Assembly (NCBI GenBank): GCA_048268245.1
Contig: JBLWVX010000005.1
Location: 1 to 10,175, forward strand
Direction: 5' to 3'
DNA length: 10,175 bases
Source: Arcobacteraceae bacterium
Lineage (GTDB): Bacteria > Campylobacterota > Campylobacteria > Campylobacterales > Arcobacteraceae
In this document: piece by piece, positions 1-10,175 of the stretch
Numbering within the stretch: position 1 is the first letter of the stretch
Layout: every line of letters begins with the position of its first letter
The notes under the pieces: generated by a model
Databases searched by the model: none
What the model was told of the DNA's origin: nothing
The model's input: only the letters and a program-made list of their open reading frames with translations
Position numbers and translations under genes: made by a program

Positions 1-220
1 TATTATGAGTCTTCTTATAATCACTTACCCATAAACTTAATGTACCTTTATTTAATCCTAAATCTTTAGCTATTGATGAAATTGATTTATCACTATCCAA
101 TCACAATTTTATTGCTGAGTCTTTGAACTTTTGATTATATTTACTTTTCCTTATTTAACCCTCTCTACATTTTATTTTAACATAGCATTTTTCTATCTCC
201 TATAAACTGTAGCCAGATCA
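1..220 (-). mobile_element. Left end of a degenerate IS3-family element running off the window (IRL plus 5' part of orfA pseudogene)
   Basis: The minus strand from 220 reads TGATCTGGCTACAGTTTATAGGAGATAGAAA, 26/31 identical to the IS end at 4538. The frame from 154 reads (I)RKSKYNQKFKDSAIKL*LDSDKSISSIAKDLGLNKGTLSLWVSDYKKTHN, an IS3 OrfA HTH. ATA sits at the expected start and there is an in-frame TGA at 103-101. Confidence 0.88.
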
Positions 221-245
221 GCTTAATTAAATTCTTTTTAATTCG

Positions 246-280
246 AAAACCTTTAAGGTATTATATCTTAAAGGTTTTTT
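246..280. terminator. Inverted repeat, probable intrinsic terminator downstream of copA
   Basis: AAAACCTTTAAG-gtattatat-CTTAAAGGTTTT(TT): perfect 12-bp arms ending in A/T runs, about 70 nt past the copA stop codon. Confidence 0.7.
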
Positions 281-347
281 GTTACATTTCTATATTTATC
301 TTATAATCATCTAAACTAGTATTAATTGAAATCATAACTATATTGTT

Positions 348-2648
348 TTATAATTTGATTTTTTTTAATCTTAATGCGTTAAAAATAACTGATACAGAAC
401 TAAGACTCATTGCAGCAGCGGCAATGACTGGTGACAATAAAACTCCAAACATTGGATATAAAATCCCTGCTGCAATAGGCACACCTGCTGAATTATACAT
501 AAATGCAAAGATAAGGTTCTGTTTTATATTTTTCATTGTTTCTTTACTTAAATTGTAAGCTTTAAGTATTCCTCTTAAATCACCTTTTATTAATGTTACT
601 TCTGCACTTTCTATTGCAATATCTGTACCAGTTCCCATAGCTATCCCAACATCTGCAGCAGTTAAAGCAGGTGCATCATTAATACCATCACCAGCCATTG
701 CAACTATATTCCCTTTAGATTGTAATTGTTTAATTACTGATAATTTATCTTGAGGCAATACATCAGAATATACTTGCTGAATATTCAATTTTTTTGCAAC
801 GGCATTGGCTGTGATTTTATTATCTCCTGTTAACATTACAACATTAATATTAAGGTTCTGTAAATCTCTTATAACTTGTTTGGTATTTTCTTTTATTGGA
901 TCAGAAATACAAATAAGACCTGCGATAGTATTATTTATCGCAATGTAAATAACTGTTTGACCTTCCATTCTTAATTCATCTGCTTCTAATTGAATATCGT
1001 CAACTTGTATACCTAAATTATTCATTAATTTTAAATTACCAAGTGCTATAAAACTATTCCCTACATAACCTGTTACACCTTTACCTGTAAGATACTCAAA
1101 TTCTTTAATTTCTTTTATTGGAAGATTCATATTTTTACATTTTCTAATAACTGCAGAAGATAAGGGATGCTCACTATTTTGTTCAATACTTGCAGCAAAA
1201 CTAATGATGTCTTTTATATTGTAATTATTTGCCGTAATTATTGAAGTCACTTCAGGTTTCCCTTGTGTTAAAGTACCAGTTTTATCCACAACAAGTGTAT
1301 TAATTTTCTGCATTGTTTCTAATGCTTGAGCATTTTTTATTAAAATTCCAGAAAGTGCTCCTTGTCCTGTTCCTACCATTATTGAAATAGGTGTTGCAAG
1401 TCCTAATGCACAAGGACATGCTATAATTAATACAGCTACAGCATTAACAATTGCGTATGCCATGCTAGGTTCAGGTCCCCAAAAGTACCAAATAATATAA
1501 GTCATTATTGAAATAAATACAACGCTTGGAACAAAATAACTTGATACTGTATTTGCAAGTTTTTGAATGGGTGCTTTGCTACGTTGAGCATCTGCTACCA
1601 TCTGTATAATTTGAGAAATTAAAGTATCTTCACCAATTTTTGTAGCTTTTATTAATAAAGTTCCATTCTCATTAATTGTTGCTCCAATTACACCATCATC
1701 TATTTTTTTCTCTACAGAGATTGGCTCTCCTGTAATCATTGATTCATCAATACTACTAGTACCATCAATTATAACTCCATCCACTGGAATTTTTTCACCT
1801 GGTTTAATTTTCAATATATCATTTACTTTAATAGATTCTATATCAATTATTTCTTCTGTTTTATCATTATTTATTCTTAACGCTTTAGCAGGGACTAAAT
1901 CTAATAACATTTTTATTGCCATATTAGTTTTTGATCTTGCTTTTAATTCTAAAACCTGACCTAATAGAACTAATGTAATAATAACACCTGCTGCCTCAAA
2001 GTAAACAGGGACTGTATTATGTTCACTTTGTAAAGTTTGTGGAAATATGTGAGGAAAGAATAATGCAATAACACTATATATCCAGGCTACACTAACCCCT
2101 AGTCCAATTAATGTAAACATATTTAAATTCTTTGTAATAACTGACTTATATGCTTTTACATAAAAACTCCATCCTCCCCAAATTACTATAGGTGTTGCTA
2201 GTAAGAATTCTATAAATTGAATTTCTTTCATAGATAATATAGAAAATAAAATTTCTGTTAAATCTGCCATCATTGCGAGTAGAAATAAAGGAACTGCTAA
2301 AATTGAACTAATCCAAAACTTTTTTGTCATAGTTTCTAATTCTAAATTATCATCTTTTTCTAATGTTTTTTTTTGAATAGGTTCTAATGCCATTCCACAT
2401 TTAGGACAATCACCTGGTTCATCTTGAATTATTTCGGGGTGCATAGGACAAGTATATTGTGTCCCTTTATCTAAAACTATTGTTTCTTTTTCATTTTTTA
2501 TATATTTATCTGGTTCATTTCTAAATTTTGATTGACAGCTAGAGCTACAAAAATAAAAACTTTTATCTTTATATTTTATATGATGTTTTGAGTTATTATC
2601 AACTTTCATATGACATACAGGATCTTTTATTATTTTGTTCTTATTCAT
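348..2648 (-). CDS. copA: Cu(I)/Ag(I)-translocating P1B-type ATPase with N-terminal YHS and heavy-metal-binding domains
   Basis: YHS-like KDPVCHM...FYFCSSSCQSKF; YTCPMHPEI...CPKCGMALEP metal-binding domain; TGE, CPC, DKTGT, SEHP, GDGIND, YN...P and MSLSS motifs of P1B-1 ATPases. AAGGA RBS at about 2660-2656. Confidence 0.95.
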   Translation of the reverse strand: MNKNKIIKDPVCHMKVDNNSKHHIKYKDKSFYFCSSSCQSKFRNEPDKYIKNEKETIVLDKGTQYTCPMHPEIIQDEPGDCPKCGMALEPIQKKTLEKDDNLELETMTKKFWISSILAVPLFLLAMMADLTEILFSILSMKEIQFIEFLLATPIVIWGGWSFYVKAYKSVITKNLNMFTLIGLGVSVAWIYSVIALFFPHIFPQTLQSEHNTVPVYFEAAGVIITLVLLGQVLELKARSKTNMAIKMLLDLVPAKALRINNDKTEEIIDIESIKVNDILKIKPGEKIPVDGVIIDGTSSIDESMITGEPISVEKKIDDGVIGATINENGTLLIKATKIGEDTLISQIIQMVADAQRSKAPIQKLANTVSSYFVPSVVFISIMTYIIWYFWGPEPSMAYAIVNAVAVLIIACPCALGLATPISIMVGTGQGALSGILIKNAQALETMQKINTLVVDKTGTLTQGKPEVTSIITANNYNIKDIISFAASIEQNSEHPLSSAVIRKCKNMNLPIKEIKEFEYLTGKGVTGYVGNSFIALGNLKLMNNLGIQVDDIQLEADELRMEGQTVIYIAINNTIAGLICISDPIKENTKQVIRDLQNLNINVVMLTGDNKITANAVAKKLNIQQVYSDVLPQDKLSVIKQLQSKGNIVAMAGDGINDAPALTAADVGIAMGTGTDIAIESAEVTLIKGDLRGILKAYNLSKETMKNIKQNLIFAFMYNSAGVPIAAGILYPMFGVLLSPVIAAAAMSLSSVSVIFNALRLKKIKL

Positions 2649-2676
2649 TTTATTTTCCTTGAATATATTTTTTAAC

Positions 2677-2829
2677 CTAATGCCTCTTATGCATGAATAA
2701 ATGCATAAGAGGACACATGAATAAAATTAAAAAAGGTATAGATTGTGATAATAAACTACCTTTGGGTGTAAAGATATATAGTAAAACTAGAAATACAATA
2801 ATCAAAAAAAACAAGTATCTTCTTTGCAT
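2677..2829 (-). CDS. Small membrane protein, DUF2933 family (50 aa), not in the supplied ORF track
   Basis: Manual translation: MQRRYLFFLIIVFLVLLYIFTPKGSLLSQSIPFLILFMCPLMHLFMHKRH*. Two hydrophobic segments plus the CPLMHLFMH signature. AAGGA RBS at 2839-2835; directly upstream of copA. Confidence 0.88.
   Translation of the reverse strand: MQRRYLFFLIIVFLVLLYIFTPKGSLLSQSIPFLILFMCPLMHLFMHKRH
2683..2712. repeat. Perfect 12-bp inverted repeat inside the 3' end of the DUF2933 gene
   Basis: CCTCTTATGCAT-gaataa-ATGCATAAGAGG. Confidence 0.9.
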
Positions 2830-2851
2830 AATAATCCTTTTTTTTATATAA

Positions 2852-3140
2852 TTAGCTTTCTGTTACTAATATCTTTTTATATTCATCTCCTTCTTCACAT
2901 AGAATTAGAATATTTCCTTTTATTTTAAAAGGTACTAAATCTAATAGTCTAGGAGGAGGACCAAATACATTTTCCTATTGTAATTAAATATTTCACCATG
3001 GCAAGCATATTTCCACTCATCCTTTTTCCACGCAGCTATACATCCTAAATGTGTGCGTAATCCAATTACTACAGTATAGTGGGTATTATCAATTACTAAA
3101 TCTCGTTTTGAATGTTCCATATCAGAGCTTTTTCAAAAGA
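2852..3140 (-). pseudogene. Remnant of a PetA-like Rieske [2Fe-2S] protein (5'-truncated, frameshifted)
   Basis: From ATG 3120: MEHSKRDLVIDNTHYTVVIGLRTHLGCIAAWKKDEWKYACHGEIFN. After a frameshift near 2975: NVFGPPPRLLDLVPFKIKGNILILCEEGDEYKKILVTES*. These are degenerate CTHLGC, CxCHG and GPPPR motifs; no Tat/TM N-terminus is present. Confidence 0.87.
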
Positions 3141-3153
3141 GTTTATAATAACA

Positions 3154-3185
3154 ATTATAACTTCTCTATGTGTAAGTAACATGGA
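3154..3185 (-). promoter_or_regulatory. Putative regulated promoter for the Rieske remnant-DUF2933-copA unit
   Basis: Minus strand: TCCATGT-tact-TACACAT-agagaagt-TATAAT. Same geometry as 4396-4427. Confidence 0.6.
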
Positions 3186-3189
3186 ATGA

Positions 3190-3391
3190 TTATGTTATGT
3201 TTAGTTTATAACCAACATTTTTAATAGCTGTAATTGTATTTCTATTCAGTTTTTTTCTAAGGTTTTTAATATAGTTTCTTCTGCATTAGCCCCATCCATC
3301 ACACTTATTACATCACATATTCTATGGATATTAAATGTTCTTCAATGATCTCATTTAGGATAGGGTCATCTTCAAGTATTAAAATTTTCAT
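3190..3391 (-). pseudogene. OmpR/PhoB-family response regulator with a large internal deletion
   Basis: The receiver start MKILILEDDPILNEIIEEHLISIEY / DVISVMDGANAEETI (frameshift near 3315) is joined near 3270 to the winged-helix end YIKNLRKKLNRNTITAIKNVGYKLNIT*. ATGA overlap with the upstream cytochrome c stop. Confidence 0.85.
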
Positions 3392-3718
3392 TTATCTTTT
3401 AATCTTCCATATTTTAGCTATAAATTATAGTGCTTGTCATCACAAAAAGATTGAAAGTAAGCAATTGTAGCTTCTTTTTCTGTTTTTGTTAACTTATCTC
3501 CAAATGGAGGTATGTTCCCATCATAAGGCTTTCCACCTTCTGTGATAATCTGCATTAATTGCCATTTTGGGTGATGCCATGCATGAGCTTTGTCATTTAA
3601 AGGTGGTGGATATAAACCATCAGGAAAACTCTTAGAATTTTATTGTATTTAAAAATAAAAAAAGCTGCTGAAATAATTATAATAATAGATACAGTTGCTT
3701 TTAAAATTTAGATTTCAT
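3388..3718 (-). pseudogene. Class I c-type cytochrome pseudogene
   Basis: MKSKF* (frameshift), then hydrophobic leader LKATVSIIIIISAAFFIFKYNK, then in another frame SKSFPDGLYPPPLNDKAHAWHHPKWQLMQIITEGGKPYDGNIPPFGDKLTKTEKEATIAYFQSFCDDKHYNL*LKYGRLKDK*. The CxxCH region is absent, IPPF stands at the MPxF axial-ligand position, and there is an internal TAG. Confidence 0.8.
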
Positions 3719-3726
3719 TTTTTATC

Positions 3727-4155
3727 TCAATGTTTTTCATAAACATCTAATGAACCATTTTTATTTATTGATAAAACATTATAAGAATGTTTTATATTAC
3801 CTTGTTCCATACCTGGGCTACCTATAGGCATACCTGGAACCGTAATACCAACAATATTAGGTTTTTGAGTCAACATTCTTTTTACTGCAGAATAATCAAC
3901 ATGTCCTTCTATAACATATCCGTCAACTAAAGCAGTATGGCAAGAAGCAGTTTTTCTTGTAATTCCAACTTTTTCTTTTACTTCATTTACATTATTTAGC
4001 TCAACTGTATTAACTTTAAAACCTTTTTCCTTCATAATATCTACCCATTTTGTACAGCACCCACAATATGGTGATTTATAAACTGTCATTTCTTTGCCTT
4101 CTATTGCAAATATTGAGCTTACTAATAATAATGATGATAAGACAACTCTTTTCAT
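3727..4155 (-). CDS. CopG/DUF411-family exported copper-binding protein
   Basis: Signal peptide; YKSPYCGCCTKW, SCHTA, EGHV and PGMPIGSPGME motifs. The ATG abuts the SHOCT gene stop (TAAATG). Confidence 0.92.
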   Translation of the reverse strand: MKRVVLSSLLLVSSIFAIEGKEMTVYKSPYCGCCTKWVDIMKEKGFKVNTVELNNVNEVKEKVGITRKTASCHTALVDGYVIEGHVDYSAVKRMLTQKPNIVGITVPGMPIGSPGMEQGNIKHSYNVLSINKNGSLDVYEKH

Positions 4156-4371
4156 TTATGATTCCTTGATTAATAATTTTTTCATTTCTTCATACTGTTC
4201 TTTTGTTATTTCACCTTTTGAGAATCGCTTTTTTAGAATATCTAAAGCAGAATTCTCATTTTTTTCTTCTTTGTTAAAAAAAGAAAAAATTAGGAAAAAT
4301 ATAATAATCCAAAATATAAACATTGCTAATCCATGAAACATTGTCATATTCATATCCATATATCCAAACAT
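4156..4371 (-). CDS. SHOCT-domain membrane protein with Met/His-rich N-terminus
   Basis: MFGYMDMNMTMFHG, one TM helix, then SALDILKKRFSKGEITKEQYEEMKKLL. AAGGAG RBS at about 4382-4377. Confidence 0.88.
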   Translation of the reverse strand: MFGYMDMNMTMFHGLAMFIFWIIIFFLIFSFFNKEEKNENSALDILKKRFSKGEITKEQYEEMKKLLIKES

Positions 4372-4395
4372 AATAGCTCCTTATAATTCTAATGT

Positions 4396-4427
4396 ATTCT
4401 ATTAAAATAATGTGGACTCTATGTGGA
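4396..4427 (-). promoter_or_regulatory. Putative response-regulator box and -10 of the SHOCT-copG operon
   Basis: Minus strand: TCCACAT-agag-TCCACAT-tattttaa-TAGAAT. Perfect 7-bp direct repeat at 11-bp period, typical of OmpR/PhoB-family sites. Confidence 0.68.
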
Positions 4428-4431
4428 GGGT

Positions 4432-4512
4432 AATGTCGAAGTATTAAAAAATTAATTAAGTTCGCACTTTAGTAAAAGATTTTGAAATTTTAGGAGAAAA
4501 TACTTCGACATT
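4432..4512. repeat. Perfect 14-bp inverted repeat with 53-bp spacer
   Basis: AATGTCGAAGTATT (4432-4445) and AATACTTCGACATT (4499-4512). Confidence 0.9.
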
Positions 4513-4607
4513 CATAATAAGAAAATTGTAGTTAACTTGATCTGGCTACACTTTATGATACATAGAAATAGTAAATTTTCTATATAATAAAAAGATAAAA
4601 GTAGTAA

Positions 4608-4925
4608 ATGAGAAGAGGACATAAATATACCCAAGAGTTTAAAGACTCAACAATTCAGTTGATTTTAAATAGTGATAAATCAATATTTAAAATATCTAAA
4701 GATTTAGATGTAAGTGATAAAACACTTTATGCATGACTAAGAACTTACAGAGAGAAACATGATATACCAACATCTTCACAACAAGCTAAAGAGTCATTAT
4801 AAGAAGAGAACAGAAGGCTAAGAACAGAGTTAGCACAAGTAAAAAAAGAAAGAGAAATACTCTTGTGCTTGCACTCTCTTTGAGAAAAAAGGCAGCAGAG
4901 TGACTTCACAAGCGAAGCTCAATAA
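4608..4925 (+). pseudogene. IS3 transposase orfA pseudogene
   Basis: MRRGHKYTQEFKDSTIQLILNSDKSIFKISKDLDVSDKTLYA*LRTY...ESL*EENRRLRTELAQVKKEREIL: HTH plus leucine zipper, with stops at 4734 and 4800 and an insertion at 4862-4884. Confidence 0.88.
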
Positions 4926-5782
4926 AGTACGCATGGATAAAAGAACATCAAACACAATTTAGTATACAACTAATGTGTAAACTATTTGGTGTGTCAAGGA
5001 GCTGTTATTATCATTATTTAGAAGTTGATAAAAAAGATGATGTACAACTACAAGAACTTATAAAAAAAGCTTTTGTAGAGTCATTTCATACCTATGGAAC
5101 AAGAAGAATAAAAAAAGAGCTTGAAGTAAATTATGGTTTAGTTTTATCAAGATGTAAAATAAGTAGAGAGATGAAAAAGCTTCATTTAAATGCCAATACT
5201 AAAAAAAAGATTTAGAGTTTTAACTATAAACTCAAATCATAATTATGCAATTGCCTGTAATAGAGTACAATAAGATTTTTATATATCATTACCTAATGAG
5301 ATATATGTTGGAGATATAATTTATGTCCCAACTAAAGAGTTATGATGATATCTTACAGTTGTAATTGATATATACTCTCAATGAGTCATTCTCTTCATAC
5401 TTTACTAGTAAATGATGCTCTTATGATAGTAATTAAAAGAAGAATACTATCAAAAGGCTTGATATATCATACTGATAGAGGAATTCAATATGCTTCTTAT
5501 GAACATAAATCTATTTTAGAAAGATATTATATTATCCAAAGCATGAGTAAGAAAGGAGATTGTTTGGATAGTGCTGTTGCTGAGAGTTTTTTTCACTTAT
5601 TGAAAACATAATTAGTCCATCATAAGAAGTTTTTAACTAGAAAAGAAGCTAATGAAAAGATATTTTAGTATATAGAGATATTATATAATAGGCAAAGATT
5701 ACACTCCTCAAATAATAATTTATCTCCAAATGATCTTGAAGATAAATTGTTACGTTTAGAAATGGTTATTTACACAGTTTAA
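4922..5782 (+). pseudogene. IS3 transposase orfB (DDE) pseudogene
   Basis: IKYAWIKEH...MCKLFGVSRSCYY...TYGTRRI, GDIIYVPTKE, HTDRGIQY, DSAVAESFFHLLK, YNRQRLHS. Several stops and frameshifts, and loss of the RKIVGW-type segment near 5378. Confidence 0.92.
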
Positions 5783-5783
5783 T

Positions 5784-6119
5784 TTACAGGGTCGGTTTTA
5801 TATGAATTTCATAACTTCTGATGATTTTATTTATATATTTTACTTCATTTTCTTTTTCTTTAAAGTATATATTAGCTATTTCATTAAGAGTTTTCTCTTT
5901 TTTGCTTCTTTTTTTTGCTATTGTTGGAGGCTCTTCACCAAGTCTTAGTTTTGTTAATATTTCATTTCTAATTTGTTTACAATAATTTATTCTGATACCT
6001 TGAGAATATTTGCCAATAGTTTTTAGTCTATCTTTGTTGTTTTCTCTGTATCTTATTACAAACACTTTATCTATTTCTTTGCCATTTTTGTTTATAATAC
6101 TCTTGAAAAAATACCTTCT
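5784..6119 (-). pseudogene. N-terminal remnant of a tyrosine recombinase/integrase (arm-binding and start of core-binding domain)
   Basis: EGIF / KSIINKNGKEIDKVFVIRYRENNKDRLKTIGKYSQGIRINYCKQIRNEILTKLRLGEEP...KTLNEIANIYF...YEIHIKPTL*. This is the typical island-integrase N-terminal pattern; the catalytic domain is absent and the sequence ends where it meets the IS3 relic. Confidence 0.75.
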
Positions 6120-6168
6120 TGAAGGTTATAGTAAAATAAAATATTTATCATTAAATAAAAGGAAATAA

Positions 6169-7272
6169 ATGGGATTAGGTGTAGGAATAGTAGGACTTCC
6201 AAACGTAGGTAAATCAACAACTTTTAATGCTTTAACAAAAGCTCAAAATGCAGAGGCTCAAAACTATCCATTTTGTACTATTGAACCAAATAAAGCTGTT
6301 GTTCCAGTACCTGATAAAAGACTTGATGAATTAGCAAAAATTGTTGACCCAAATAAAATTCAACACTCAACTATTGATTTTGTAGATATTGCAGGATTAG
6401 TTAGAGGTGCAAGTAAAGGTGAGGGACTTGGAAACCAGTTCTTATCTAATATTAGAGAAGTTGAAGTTATCTTACATATGGTTAGATGTTTTGATGATGG
6501 TAATGTAACTCATGTTGAGGGTGATGTAGATCCAATCAGAGATATTGAAATTATTGAAACAGAGTTAATTTATGCAGATATTACTCAATGTGAAAAGAAA
6601 ATTGAAAAATTAAAAAAACAATCAAAAGGTTCTAAAGAAGCAGCTGCAATGCTAGTTGTTGCAGAAGAGTTAATGGCTCACTTAAGTGAATTACAACCTG
6701 TTAAAACTTTTGAAGATAAAGAAAATGAACTTTTCCTAGCTATGGATAAAGAGTTAAGATTCTTATCAAATAAAGATGTAATCTATGGTGCAAACATGGA
6801 TGAAGACTCTTTAATGGAAGGAACAAATGAGTATGTTGAAAAACTAAAAGAACATGCAAACTCTGTAAATGCAGATGTTATTACTCTTTGTGCAAAAATT
6901 GAAGAAGAACTTGTTGGAATGGATGATGATGAGGCTAAAGAGTTATTAACTGATTTAGGTGTTGAAGAGTCTGGATTAGAGCAAATTATTCAAAAAGCAT
7001 TTGATAAATTAGGTCTTATGAGTTATTTCACAGCAGGAAAAGTTGAAGTTAGAGCATGGACTATTAGAAAAGATACAAAAGCACCACAAGCTGCAGCTGT
7101 TATTCACAATGACTTTGAGAAAGGTTTTATCAAAGCAGAAGTTATTTCTTATGAAGACTTTGTTGCAAATGGTGGAGAATCTAAGTGTAAAGAGCTTGGA
7201 AAGTTAAGACTTGAAGGTAAAGATTACATTGTTCAAGACGGTGATGTAATGCATTTCAGATTTAATACATAA
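6169..7272 (+). CDS. ychF: Ribosome-binding ATPase YchF (Obg family)
   Basis: GIVGLPNVGKST, NYPFCTIEPN, DIAGLV, GEGLGNQFL, NxxE-type G4 (NMDE), and a C-terminal TGS-like domain ending EGKDYIVQDGDVMHFRFN. AAGGA RBS at 6159-6163. Confidence 0.98.
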   Translation: MGLGVGIVGLPNVGKSTTFNALTKAQNAEAQNYPFCTIEPNKAVVPVPDKRLDELAKIVDPNKIQHSTIDFVDIAGLVRGASKGEGLGNQFLSNIREVEVILHMVRCFDDGNVTHVEGDVDPIRDIEIIETELIYADITQCEKKIEKLKKQSKGSKEAAAMLVVAEELMAHLSELQPVKTFEDKENELFLAMDKELRFLSNKDVIYGANMDEDSLMEGTNEYVEKLKEHANSVNADVITLCAKIEEELVGMDDDEAKELLTDLGVEESGLEQIIQKAFDKLGLMSYFTAGKVEVRAWTIRKDTKAPQAAAVIHNDFEKGFIKAEVISYEDFVANGGESKCKELGKLRLEGKDYIVQDGDVMHFRFNT

Positions 7273-7285
7273 TTGATATAAATTG

Positions 7286-7294
7286 TGTTACAAT
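7286..7294 (+). promoter_or_regulatory. Possible extended -10 promoter for the HDOD gene
   Basis: TGtTACAAT in the 49-bp intergenic gap, upstream of the AGGAG RBS at 7311-7315. Confidence 0.45.
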
Positions 7295-7321
7295 AGAAAA
7301 TTATTTTAGTAGGAGTTTAAA

Positions 7322-8143
7322 TTGTCATCTATAAGCATATTAGAAAAAATAGAATCTCTTCCTCCCCTTCCTAAGACTATTAGTGAGATTGAGGAGTTTA
7401 GAAGAAAAAGTGATAAAGAAGCATTTGAGTTACTACAAATTGTAGAAAAAGACGCTTTAATCATTTCTACATTATTAAAGATTTCAAATTCAGCAATGTT
7501 TGGATTTAGATCTAAAGTAGAAACACCAAGCAGAGCAATCAATCTTTTAGGAATTAATTTTACAATTTCTATTGCTATTGGTGGTACTGTACAAAATTTA
7601 CTTATGTCAAACTTAGAGCCATATGGTATAAATAGTGATGATTTTATGAGAGCTTCAAACTTATCATCAACTCTTGCTCATTTATGGGTTTCTAAATTTG
7701 ATTATGATTTAAAAGAAGAGCTTTTGCTTCCAGCACTTTTACAAGAAGCAGGAAAGTTTATTTTAGCTGATATTATAGTTACAGATAAAAAGACAGAAAT
7801 GTTTAAAACAAAAATAGCTCAAGGTGAAGATGTAGCAGCAGTTGAAAAAGAGTTAATTGGTTTATCAACTTCAGAAATAACAGCTAAAATCTTTAGACAT
7901 TGGAAATTAAGTGATAGCTTAATCGATATGATTGAATATGTTGATGATGTAGAAAAGTGTAATGAATCAATTAAGCAAAAAGCACAAATTTTAGATGTTA
8001 TCAAAACAGCATGTAACGTTACAGATCCATTAAGTGAAGAAAACTGTGCAAAAGCAGTAGAAAAAGCTACAAAATATGGACTTCATACTAAGTCATTGGA
8101 AAAAGCTATAGAGACACTTCAAGATAGACTACTAGATGAATAA
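7322..8143 (+). CDS. Stand-alone HDOD-domain protein
   Basis: IESLPPLPKT, EKDALIISTLLKISNSAMFG, RAINLLG, ALLQEAGKFIL and IFRHWKLS match the HDOD pattern. TTG start with AGGAG RBS. Confidence 0.92.
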   Translation: MSSISILEKIESLPPLPKTISEIEEFRRKSDKEAFELLQIVEKDALIISTLLKISNSAMFGFRSKVETPSRAINLLGINFTISIAIGGTVQNLLMSNLEPYGINSDDFMRASNLSSTLAHLWVSKFDYDLKEELLLPALLQEAGKFILADIIVTDKKTEMFKTKIAQGEDVAAVEKELIGLSTSEITAKIFRHWKLSDSLIDMIEYVDDVEKCNESIKQKAQILDVIKTACNVTDPLSEENCAKAVEKATKYGLHTKSLEKAIETLQDRLLDE

Positions 8144-8166
8144 TTAAGGTTTTAACCTTAATTATT
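8139..8166. terminator. Palindromic, probably bidirectional terminator between convergent genes
   Basis: AATAATTAAGGTT-tt-AACCTTAATTATT; contains both stop codons (8141-8143 and 8164-8162). Confidence 0.75.
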
Positions 8167-10171
8167 TAAATTCGTAATATCCTGTTTTACTATTTTTAGC
8201 TAAAGACATTCCATACTCTGACTTCTCTAATATATTTTCAGTATTGCCCCAAGTAACTGAAATTTGAAGCTCTGGTTTTATTTTTATATTTTCATGATTT
8301 AAATCAAAACTATTTATTTTTTTTATTAACTCTTTGTATTCTGATTCATTAGTTAAAATTCCTAAGGTTGGACCTTGAAGTCTATATGTTATTGATTCTT
8401 CATTTATATTTAAAGCTAATTGCTTAAACAACATATTTCCTTTTTCATATGTATGTTTTATATTTATTTGTTCTAAATTAGCAAAATAAATTTCAATAAA
8501 TACAATCTCTTCATCTGTAATATTTTTTAAATCTTTTCTTAATTTATTTATATTGAAAAGTTTTGTAACTGAGTCTATATAAATAGGAATACTTTTTAAG
8601 TAACTGATGATTATATTGATTAGGTTTTGTACTATATACGACTTATTTTTTTCAAAAATTTCTAAAAATATATGTTCATAAACTTTAGAATATGCCATTC
8701 TTAATTTATAACCTTCCATAAGAGGTATTTCTATTTTTTTATAGCCTAAGTCAACTAGTCTACATTTTTCTTTACAAAGACCTTCAACGGCACAAAAAAT
8801 AAGACCATGAAAAATTTCATTTGAAATAAAGTTTTCAATACTTTTATTTAATGTATCACTATCTAATCCCTCTTTCGTAAAAATTTCACTTACAATATTA
8901 CTTAGTTCTTGATTTATATTATATTTAAGAGTTATTTCAAATCTTTTTGCATATTTTTCTATAATATTTTGTCCAATTTTTCTATATTTTTCTGGCTTAT
9001 AAACTAAATCATCTATTTCAATATCTTCCATATAGTTTTTACCAAGGTTTAAAAGAACAGTATTATTTAACTCTAAATATTCATTTTCAAGTAGTGATTT
9101 ACCATTTATACTAATATATTTATAGAAATATTCTTTTGTAGTTTCATCAGATTTTTCATCTTTATAGTACGAGTAATAAGCAGATAGAGATAAGTAAAGT
9201 TTTGAATATATAGCCATAAGATGTGAAGCTATTTTATTTGTTTCAATATACGAAATAATCTTTGAATGAAGATTATCTTTAATAGTGTCATTTTTAAGTT
9301 TTGTTAACTTATTGATAATAACATCACACAAAGATAGTTTATAGTATTCATAGTAGTCATTTTCAAATTTATCTTTAGATATTAGAATTTCAAGAATTTC
9401 AATCAACTTATCTGCTTCTATCTTATTTGAATAAAGTACAATTGAATGTACTATTTGCATGTTAGTATTATTAAAGTCTTTACTTTTTATAAACTCATCA
9501 AGTATTTGTCTATAGTCATAATTTTTCTTTGTATTGTAGTTGTAAATATATGAAAAATTATCTATAAGATCTTCTTGAAAGCTGTATATACAATCAAATT
9601 TATTTATAGTTTTATGGATAACTTCTCGTTTATATAAAGTAAATATATTTGTGAATTTCTCTAAAATATCTGTGTTTTCTAAGTTATAATTATGATGAAG
9701 TTTATAAATTAGATTTGACAATAGGGTGCTTAAAGAATTTAAAAATATATAGTAATACTTTTTATAGTTATTTTCATTTGCAAAATTTGTATTTTTTGAT
9801 AGTTCGTATCCATCACAAGTTTTTTGAAAATAGAAGAAAAACTCATCTATAAGATATGTATATTCTTTATCTTTGATATCAATAAATGGGATATGTGAAT
9901 AGAAAAATAAAAGTTTTCCTAAAATATTATTTAACTTATTTATTTTTTCTTCACCAATTGATACTCTAAATTTTGTAATATTTATTGTTTCAGTGATTAA
10001 ATCAATTAGTTCATTTATTGTTCTTTTTCTATAAACATCATTTGAGTTTATCGTACAAATTTTATTTAGTGTTTCAATTAATAATAAATATTGACTAAAA
10101 CTATTCTCAAAGTTTTTTTTCTCTTTTTTTTCATATTCATTTTGAAGTTTATCTTCATTTATATTATTCAT
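8162..10171 (-). CDS. Large soluble protein with C-terminal degenerate GGDEF-like domain; true start may lie outside the window
   Basis: C-terminal IDSVTKLFN (DxLTGLxN-like), INIKHTYEKGN (INDxxGHxxGD-like), YRLQGPTL (YRxGGDEF position) and MSLAK. The first ~500 aa are unrecognised. The ATG is 4 nt from the window edge with an open frame upstream. Confidence 0.72.
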   Translation of the reverse strand: MNNINEDKLQNEYEKKEKKNFENSFSQYLLLIETLNKICTINSNDVYRKRTINELIDLITETINITKFRVSIGEEKINKLNNILGKLLFFYSHIPFIDIKDKEYTYLIDEFFFYFQKTCDGYELSKNTNFANENNYKKYYYIFLNSLSTLLSNLIYKLHHNYNLENTDILEKFTNIFTLYKREVIHKTINKFDCIYSFQEDLIDNFSYIYNYNTKKNYDYRQILDEFIKSKDFNNTNMQIVHSIVLYSNKIEADKLIEILEILISKDKFENDYYEYYKLSLCDVIINKLTKLKNDTIKDNLHSKIISYIETNKIASHLMAIYSKLYLSLSAYYSYYKDEKSDETTKEYFYKYISINGKSLLENEYLELNNTVLLNLGKNYMEDIEIDDLVYKPEKYRKIGQNIIEKYAKRFEITLKYNINQELSNIVSEIFTKEGLDSDTLNKSIENFISNEIFHGLIFCAVEGLCKEKCRLVDLGYKKIEIPLMEGYKLRMAYSKVYEHIFLEIFEKNKSYIVQNLINIIISYLKSIPIYIDSVTKLFNINKLRKDLKNITDEEIVFIEIYFANLEQINIKHTYEKGNMLFKQLALNINEESITYRLQGPTLGILTNESEYKELIKKINSFDLNHENIKIKPELQISVTWGNTENILEKSEYGMSLAKNSKTGYYEFK

Positions 10172-10175
10172 GTAT

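Follow-up and report, generated by a model that had tools for sequence, protein, structure and literature searches.

The closest described counterpart of the locus analyzed here is the copO-copF-copG-copJ cluster of the Cupriavidus metallidurans pMOL30 type, in which the genes for DUF2933, a YHS-type Cu ATPase, CopG (DUF411) and a monohaem cytochrome c lie together. Our locus is a copper island at the start of contig C5 in an Arcobacteraceae genome of 2.68 Mb, within bases 1-10,175 (this whole stretch is called the window below); it contains homologs of these genes and, directly ahead of DUF2933, a remnant of petA, the gene for cytochrome bc1's Rieske subunit. At a C. metallidurans plasmid locus (L316) the order is DUF2933, ATPase, DUF411, cytochrome c, in agreement with the published gene list copO, copF, copG, copJ (PMC12029693); the name copJ is assigned by gene order. 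The window ATPase is 51% identical to the plasmid ATPase in the copF position, and the cytochrome family of the window, called CopJ-like here, matches the cytochrome in the copJ position (35%, E 6e-23). The grouping of CopG, cytochrome c and CopA is therefore not new. Unlike the window, the Cupriavidus locus contains no Rieske gene, and the window differs further in its rearranged gene order, its OmpR-type direct-repeat promoter, and the loss of function of its cytochrome and regulator genes.

Rieske genes outside their operon have likewise been described. Rubrivivax gelatinosus petA2, ISP2 and the multiple ISPs of roseobacters are, like the gene in the window, bc1-type petA without petB or petC. 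The second Rieske of Rubrivivax is reported to be interchangeable with the operon copy in the bc1 complex (cited in PMC6256036 and PMC4013037), and ISP2 genes lie in clusters that share no common flanking genes (PMC4013037). In its available passages this literature mentions neither a link to copper nor a CueR box, and none of its cases comes from the Campylobacterota; the window copy differs from these genes in being a pseudogene. Within the Campylobacterales, the CrdRS copper resistance of Helicobacter pylori (crdAB-czcAB, copAP) is under OmpR-family two-component control; the accessible part of its description names no CopG, cytochrome c or Rieske protein in the regulon, and the likeness to the window lies in the regulator family (PMC9696931). 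The housekeeping petABC operon of the Arcobacteraceae is the remaining comparison: the remnant descends from that PetA lineage, but lacks petB and petC, stands in another promoter context, is truncated and has mutated cluster ligands.

We interpret the petA remnant as what is left of an independently recruited, predicted copper-induced spare Rieske subunit for the bc1 complex of the host, now dead, and assign this reading a probability of about one half. The copper island is of the copO-F-G-J type and partly dead, and the feature is real but fossil. An earlier annotation made from the letters of the window without database searches (the sequence-only reading) had placed three co-oriented pseudogenes here, for a cytochrome c, an OmpR-type regulator and a PetA-like Rieske protein, and tblastn with intact relatives locates all three at 2852-3718 on the minus strand. 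It had also described the stretch as empty of open reading frames, which is not wholly so, as pieces of 59 and 45 aa are present. The PetA remnant (3141-2852) covers residues ~70-165 and is recognized with the host PetA (tblastn, E 1e-26, match over residues ~70-163); its best NCBIfam match is TIGR01416 (E 1.6e-6 for a 50-aa piece, under the whole-protein cut-off). It closes at a stop at the natural length (2854-2852), 22 nt ahead of the start of DUF2933 and with no petB sequence after it, so the earlier observation that neither petB nor petC lies beside it stands, and this ending fits recruitment of a whole gene. The first ~70 codons, encoding the twin-arginine translocation (Tat) signal and the membrane anchor, are missing together with the ribosome-binding site, and a frameshift is present near 2980. 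Where an intact Rieske protein has its CxH...CxxH ligand and disulfide cysteines, the remnant reads RTHLGC and YACHG; Arg stands in place of one cluster-ligand Cys, and Tyr in place of the invariant Cys that opens the second motif. The host has a full petABC operon on contig C2, and no such operon at the window.

The features of the island are as follows.

348-2648, minus strand: intact gene for a CopA/CopF-type Cu(I) P1B-ATPase of 766 aa with YHS and HMBD domains (TIGR01511 above cut-off; Pfam YHS and HMBD).
2677-2829, minus strand: DUF2933 (CopO-like) small membrane protein, 50 aa (PF11666, E 2.5e-9).
2852-3141, minus strand: pseudogene for PetA, the bc1 Rieske protein (tblastn and NCBIfam TIGR01416).
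3154-3185, minus strand: predicted response-regulator promoter with two half-sites, 8 nt and TATAAT, facing petA'-DUF2933-copA (score 16.9, genome rank 8).
3190-3391, minus strand: pseudogene for an OmpR-type response regulator (tblastn, DNA alignment).
3388-3718, minus strand: pseudogene for a CopJ-like monohaem cytochrome c (72% to the intact ortholog).
3727-4155, minus strand: intact gene for CopG (DUF411), a periplasmic copper protein of 142 aa with CxCC (PF04214, E 1.5e-24; PDB 6WIS, E 3e-26).
4156-4371, minus strand: intact gene for a SHOCT-domain small membrane protein (PF09851, E 1.9e-8).
4396-4427, minus strand: predicted response-regulator promoter of the SHOCT-CopG-cytochrome c-regulator unit (score 25.2, genome rank 2).

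Read from right to left, the island thus runs from the box at 4427 through SHOCT, CopG and the three remnants to DUF2933 and the copper ATPase. Aligned to PDB 6WIS, CopG keeps CGCC and GMPIGSPGM, the CxCC and Met-containing GMPxGSPGM elements of thioredoxin-like DUF411 proteins, and its closest named relatives are from Arcobacter and Poseidonibacter (77-80%). Relatives of the DUF2933 protein are 51-62 aa long and overlap the copA start, so that the window copy (50 aa) is a little shorter.

The two other remnants show how the island has decayed. The cytochrome c remnant (3718-3388) matches residues 67-148 of an intact ortholog at 72% (E 1e-36, tblastn with intact relatives as queries) and retains PPLNDKAHAWHH; the DNA alignment shows a deletion of ~40 codons, CXXCH among them, as well as a frameshift and a premature stop. 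The haem-binding CXXCH, found in 119 of 120 relatives, is therefore gone, and the HxWHH motif, held by 119/120 family members, is kept. The regulator remnant preserves residues 1-25 and 192-219 (E 2e-6 and 2e-8), with the central ~150 codons missing. Both losses are clean internal deletions in the DNA alignment. Among columns conserved at ≥95%, 10 of 45 are changed in PetA (120 references) and 5 of 32 in the cytochrome (60 references); at a 90% threshold the counts are 2/21 for the regulator and 1/52 for the intact CopG. The decay level of PetA is thus like that of the cytochrome and unlike that of CopG, which fits a joint loss of function. Because large internal deletions are the way in which this island decays, they favor, together with the natural stop and the matching decay, a petA that was once complete. 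Independent metagenomes show the same lesions, which rules out an assembly or sequencing artefact: run X5, from an independent study, yields a contig identical to the window over 2300-4167 (0 differences), run X9 spans 2683-3228, and other strains show extra deletions of 10 and 15 nt, the 10-nt one in the regulator (run X12). The decay is therefore real and continuing. The public runs containing this stretch are oyster and mollusc metagenomes. In the single RNA run, X13, a small share (0.13) of the sequence words is present, as contigs.

The cytochrome was earlier called His-rich; it has three extra His (HxWHH), but is not broadly rich in them. The family alignment (P0121-P0240) has a near-invariant PPPLN..AHxWHH segment beside CXXCH and an axial-type Met, and the three His could form a putative copper site. 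The family was found in 24 of 184 Arcobacteraceae genomes. Of the other 23, 18 have a copper gene within the region retrieved, and CopG is the immediate neighbour in nine; four short or contig-end loci and genome G029 are the exceptions. In the latter, a CopJ-like HxWHH cytochrome c directly follows petABC rather than lying in a copper island (L114:9618-9944; L115:4662-5090; the region is present twice in the assembly). This arrangement suggests that a CopJ-like cytochrome c can serve as electron acceptor of bc1.

Judged by its sequence, the PetA remnant is of Arcobacteraceae and not of alphaproteobacterial descent, as it nests in the tree among Arcobacteraceae PetAs, far from the alphaproteobacterial ones; its recruitment would accordingly be independent. 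It is 64% identical to host PetA at the protein level and 67% at the DNA level, and 63-71% identical in DNA to 24 other family copies. A recent near-identical copy of the host petA, which the sequence-only reading had considered, is ruled out by the 67% identity, the remnant being no nearer to the host than to other genera. Two of its 10 changed conserved columns are common to the intact relatives P0088 and P0095. One tree grouped it with P0088, P0095 and G009, where long branches meet, and the group dissolved once rows were removed; the approximately unbiased (AU) test, on an alignment that left out 10 orphans and 8 long or distant rows, does not reject this group (p 0.69).

The remnant lies downstream of a high-ranking promoter of the island. 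The box at 3185-3154 reads TCCACAY-N4-TCCACAY-N8-TATAAT, and in relatives a conserved direct repeat lies upstream of SHOCT with a -10 hexamer 8 nt further. A matrix built on 15 such sites, all of other genomes, was used to score 5.36 million genome positions; the site at 4427 ranks second and that at 3185 eighth, and five of the top eight fall in the two copper loci of the genome. The boxed promoter proposed earlier is therefore real, but it belongs to DUF2933-copA. In G104 and G109, whose CopA proteins are closest to that of the window, the same box architecture stands directly before DUF2933, which makes the box the native DUF2933-copA promoter, with petA inserted in its leader. From gene context and the analogy with H. 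pylori CrdRS, we infer that the TCCACAY repeat is bound by an OmpR-type regulator that senses copper. On contig C8 (5000-25000; L110) the host has a second copper island, which is intact and comprises CusABC-like efflux, a sensor kinase, three response regulators, a porin, SHOCT and CopA; it holds three top-ranking boxes and could act in trans on the surviving genes of the window.

The sequence-only reading had raised a spare Rieske subunit for copper stress as one possibility. That option now has support, though from other phyla: no intact case was found in the Campylobacterota genomes searched, but intact lone petA genes do occur in plasmid copper islands of Alpha- and Betaproteobacteria, unrelated bacteria of sea and soil. 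PetA matches 118 records of the plasmid collection and PetB 43; among the matches listed, 43 of 60 PetA rows have no PetB match when compared by accession. We hand-picked 17 orphan plasmid petA loci, about one per genus and several of them akin, excluding the Sulfurovum and Alteromonas plasmid matches, which are full petABC operons. An annotated copper gene lies within 8 kb in 12 of the 17 (Dinoroseobacter, Sinorhizobium pSinB, Ruegeria, Roseovarius, Methylocystis, Leisingera, Sulfitobacter, Roseobacter, Tritonibacter, Jannaschia, Burkholderia and Phaeobacter); three loci are ambiguous (Ensifer, Marinibacterium, Paraburkholderia) and two have no copper gene (Bosea, S. meliloti ml46). Control windows on the far side of six copper-positive plasmids contained a copper gene in one case. 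CTHLGC and CPCHGS are preserved in all 17 proteins, as are an N-terminal signal of the Tat type and the anchor. As the intact orphans retain this bc1-type PetA anatomy, they most likely slot into the bc1 complex of their host, as has been reported for the second Rieske of Rubrivivax.

A CueR-like box lies within 120 nt upstream of six of the 17 orphan starts (~6e-4 per window in shuffled DNA); the consensus used, which we take to be that of CueR, matched before copA genes of the same loci. In Ruegeria B32, petA is the last gene of a co-oriented run CopA-APC-DUF2933-orf-cytochrome c-petA with a CueR-like box at its start. The boxes before lone petA have a 6-nt spacer, against 7 nt before copA in the same loci (L228, L237, L238, L239, L240, L244 and the genome locus L304); the 6-nt form is also seen ahead of dsbA, ccmF and a cytochrome c gene, and may reflect a second MerR-type regulator or promoter class. 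On a Burkholderia contaminans plasmid (L243), two cueR genes enclose the lone petA, and a multicopper oxidase and a HiPIP gene are close by, so that electrons might pass from bc1 to HiPIP in a copper island. A complete rplM-rpsI-petABC block is present on Alteromonas plasmid pBGP9 (L292), with a heavy-metal sensor kinase and a cupredoxin/FTR1 system in its vicinity.

As an unbiased check we used 101 genomes of a roseobacter-type family, six of which carry seven lone petA copies. One copy lies with a multicopper oxidase and CueR plus box, and one with DUF2933-ICMT; two belong to a DUF3141-fabI-petA-CBS cassette and have no copper gene in range, one lies in a sugar-metabolism island, and two are divergent. 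Apart from the copies with a copper-cluster gene within 8 kb, one of these seven adjoins passenger genes of copper islands. G546 has a lone second petA among sulfur-oxidation genes, and G512 one between rhodanese-like genes. The DUF3141-(ack-pta)-fabI-petA-CBS/BON cassette recurs (L301, L303, L308, L236), often by DUF2933, ICMT, APC or CopA, and carries its own lone petA. The link between lone petA and copper thus recurs in alpha- and betaproteobacterial plasmids, and is weaker in the unbiased sample. In the literature, a full-text search found no description of lone petA in copper islands, most subscription papers being outside its coverage; one paper records a 2Fe-2S oxidoreductase and a cytochrome c in the neighbourhood of Cu ATPases of Alphaproteobacteria, but does not mention petA in its accessible text (PMC13707694). 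The impression of the sequence-only reading that the module was undescribed thus appears to hold for the petA-copper link, but not for CopG, cytochrome c, DUF2933 and ATPase, which are the known copO-F-G-J set; the core of the cluster is known, and the Rieske insertion order is unique among the loci searched. Only tentatively do we propose that lone petA was placed independently under copper-responsive control in mobile copper islands of Alphaproteobacteria, Betaproteobacteria and Arcobacteraceae.

Several results weigh against a recruited spare subunit in the window. Among the genomes searched (184 Arcobacteraceae and 351 Campylobacterales) there is no intact lone-Rieske copper locus, and the complete order SHOCT-DUF411-cytochrome c-regulator-Rieske-DUF2933-copA that the sequence-only reading expected to find was seen in none of the Campylobacterales. 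A PetA match is present in 176 of the 184 family genomes and two matches in eight; apart from the host, these are six petAB duplicates and one contig-end fragment. No lone Rieske lies nearby at the six other DUF2933 loci, in the 11 YHS-CopA genomes or in the 23 cytochrome c genomes; upstream of those DUF2933 loci and of other YHS-CopA loci are SHOCT, CusA or unrelated genes. A further 27 Campylobacterales genomes have extra PetA matches, mostly petAB(C) operons in the 15 that were read, with no copper gene within 1.5 kb of the extra matches; the 12 unread ones are from one genus with five read. In addition, as 70 codons at the 5' end and the ribosome-binding site are missing, a full-length ancestor is hypothetical; the box is native to DUF2933-copA and gives no argument for selection on petA; and the AU test does not reject a clade with host petA (p 0.58). 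On the proteobacterial side, four of the six boxed copies are one lineage among hand-picked loci of which several are kin, and only two of the seven lone copies in the 101-genome sample have a copper-cluster gene within 8 kb.

Further searches for an intact relative gave nothing. The metagenome scan for an ortholog of the remnant returned one spurious match, and a protein search with the 50-aa piece three candidates, none significant (the query is short and the evidence weak); a viral-contig scan with P0095 found nothing, plasmid blastn matched only the cytochrome c and CopA parts, and no intact petA 5' end is present at the region in contigs of eight public runs (scored for presence only). 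Four other Rieske-domain matches of the family that were read (G107, G190, G142, G155) were rejected, as they lie in different contexts with no copper link; two of these genes precede an 823-aa gene, an arrangement that resembles arsenite oxidase by eye. Whole petABC operons are duplicated near-identically in three genomes of one Arcobacteraceae genus (L116-L121; G169-G171), and in genus g44 (L245-L263) there are often 3-5 copies, among them a divergent petAB in which the third gene is short and no c1 is visible.

The missing 5' end and the absence of an intact relative keep chance capture alive as a possible, though less probable, explanation. The 3' piece of some Arcobacteraceae petA would have been inserted by illegitimate recombination in the untranslated leader of DUF2933-copA, would never have made protein and would have decayed since, with the proteobacterial lone petA a separate matter. 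The absence of the 5' half of the gene and of the ribosome-binding site agrees with this, as do the match of the promoter and the DUF2933 ribosome-binding region to the petA-free leader of G104 and G109, an insertion seen in no other genome searched, a host-lineage origin that the AU test does not reject, and remnants of an IS3 element and an integrase that flank the island. A random fragment is however less easily reconciled with a 3' junction at the petA stop and without petB sequence, with a decay level matching that of the cytochrome c pseudogene, and with intact genes of the same type in copper islands of two other classes.

It is unlikely that CopG, the HxWHH cytochrome c and a lone Rieske form a dedicated periplasmic electron chain for copper oxidation or reduction, as the sequence-only reading had suggested; beyond adjacency in one decayed locus we found nothing for it. 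All three genes do lie in one island here, the cytochrome gene adjoins petA in Ruegeria B32 and lies not far from it in Roseovarius indicus, Dinoroseobacter and Phaeobacter have CopG close to petA, HxWHH is all but universal in the cytochrome family, and CopG, a tetranuclear copper protein, has been proposed to oxidize Cu(I) (PMC7558416). But CopG adjoins the cytochrome without a lone Rieske in 9 of the 23 Arcobacteraceae genomes and in Cupriavidus, and it is because none of the intact loci read, in Arcobacteraceae and in Cupriavidus, has a Rieske with this pair that we consider such a chain improbable; moreover, the orphan PetAs show no new features, their anchor and motifs being fully of the bc1 type, and their neighbours differ between loci. 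Least probable of all, and very unlikely, is that the extra petA merely travels with DUF3141-ack-pta-fabI-CBS or sugar-fermentation cassettes that often insert in metal islands, copper not being the signal: cassettes of this kind contain four of the seven lone copies from the 101 genomes (for three of the four, there is no explicit copper gene within 8 kb), petA of Sulfitobacter likewise follows the DUF3141 cassette, and Crp/Fnr regulators stand beside several lone copies, but the window has no such cassette gene, and CueR-like boxes lie directly before 6/17 plasmid copies and one chromosomal copy.

To the right of the island, up to ychF, are a heavily broken IS3-like transposase gene (4608-5780, plus strand) and a weak integrase arm-binding piece (5784-6065, minus strand). 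In G014, CopG likewise adjoins ychF (L106), which hints at a common insertion site. The open reading frame at 8162-10171 (minus strand, 669 aa) is very AT-rich and has no Pfam match at E 0.1; its C-terminus resembles a degenerate GGDEF-type domain by eye.

PetA is Tat-exported and membrane-anchored, and acts at the quinol site of cytochrome b. For the spare subunit that we favor, we hypothesize that a full-length extra petA sat in the leader of the DUF2933-copA operon, and that under copper a two-component regulator would bind the TCCACAY repeat; the C8 island could supply this regulator in trans. Copper would limit the Rieske subunit, both in the cytoplasm, where its Fe-S cluster is loaded, and in the periplasm, where CopA delivers Cu(I) and where the cluster and a disulfide would be exposed. 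Induced extra PetA would slot into the existing cytochrome b/c1 core, so that respiration could continue. Separately, and without involvement of the Rieske protein, CopG would likely oxidize periplasmic Cu(I), with electrons passing to the CopJ-like cytochrome c and on to a terminal oxidase. The 5' end of the ancestral petA would later have been lost by a deletion like those in the cytochrome and the regulator. Copper is reported to harm Fe-S proteins and periplasmic cytochrome c assembly (PMC4600104), and petA of Nitratiruptor is up under Cu (log2 1.55) and Cd (2.03), as one of 27 genes induced by both (PMC10092412, Table 1).

The copy in the window is dead, and its main significance is that it may represent an independent origin beyond the Proteobacteria. 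The recurring copper-island context with CueR-like boxes bears on the old open question of why many proteobacteria keep extra Rieske genes outside the operon. If lone petA has indeed been placed under copper-responsive control independently in these three lineages, the Rieske subunit would be the copper-sensitive weak point of bc1 and thus a specific respiratory target of copper toxicity, and the supply of a spare subunit would be an unrecognized arm of copper resistance beside efflux and oxidation.

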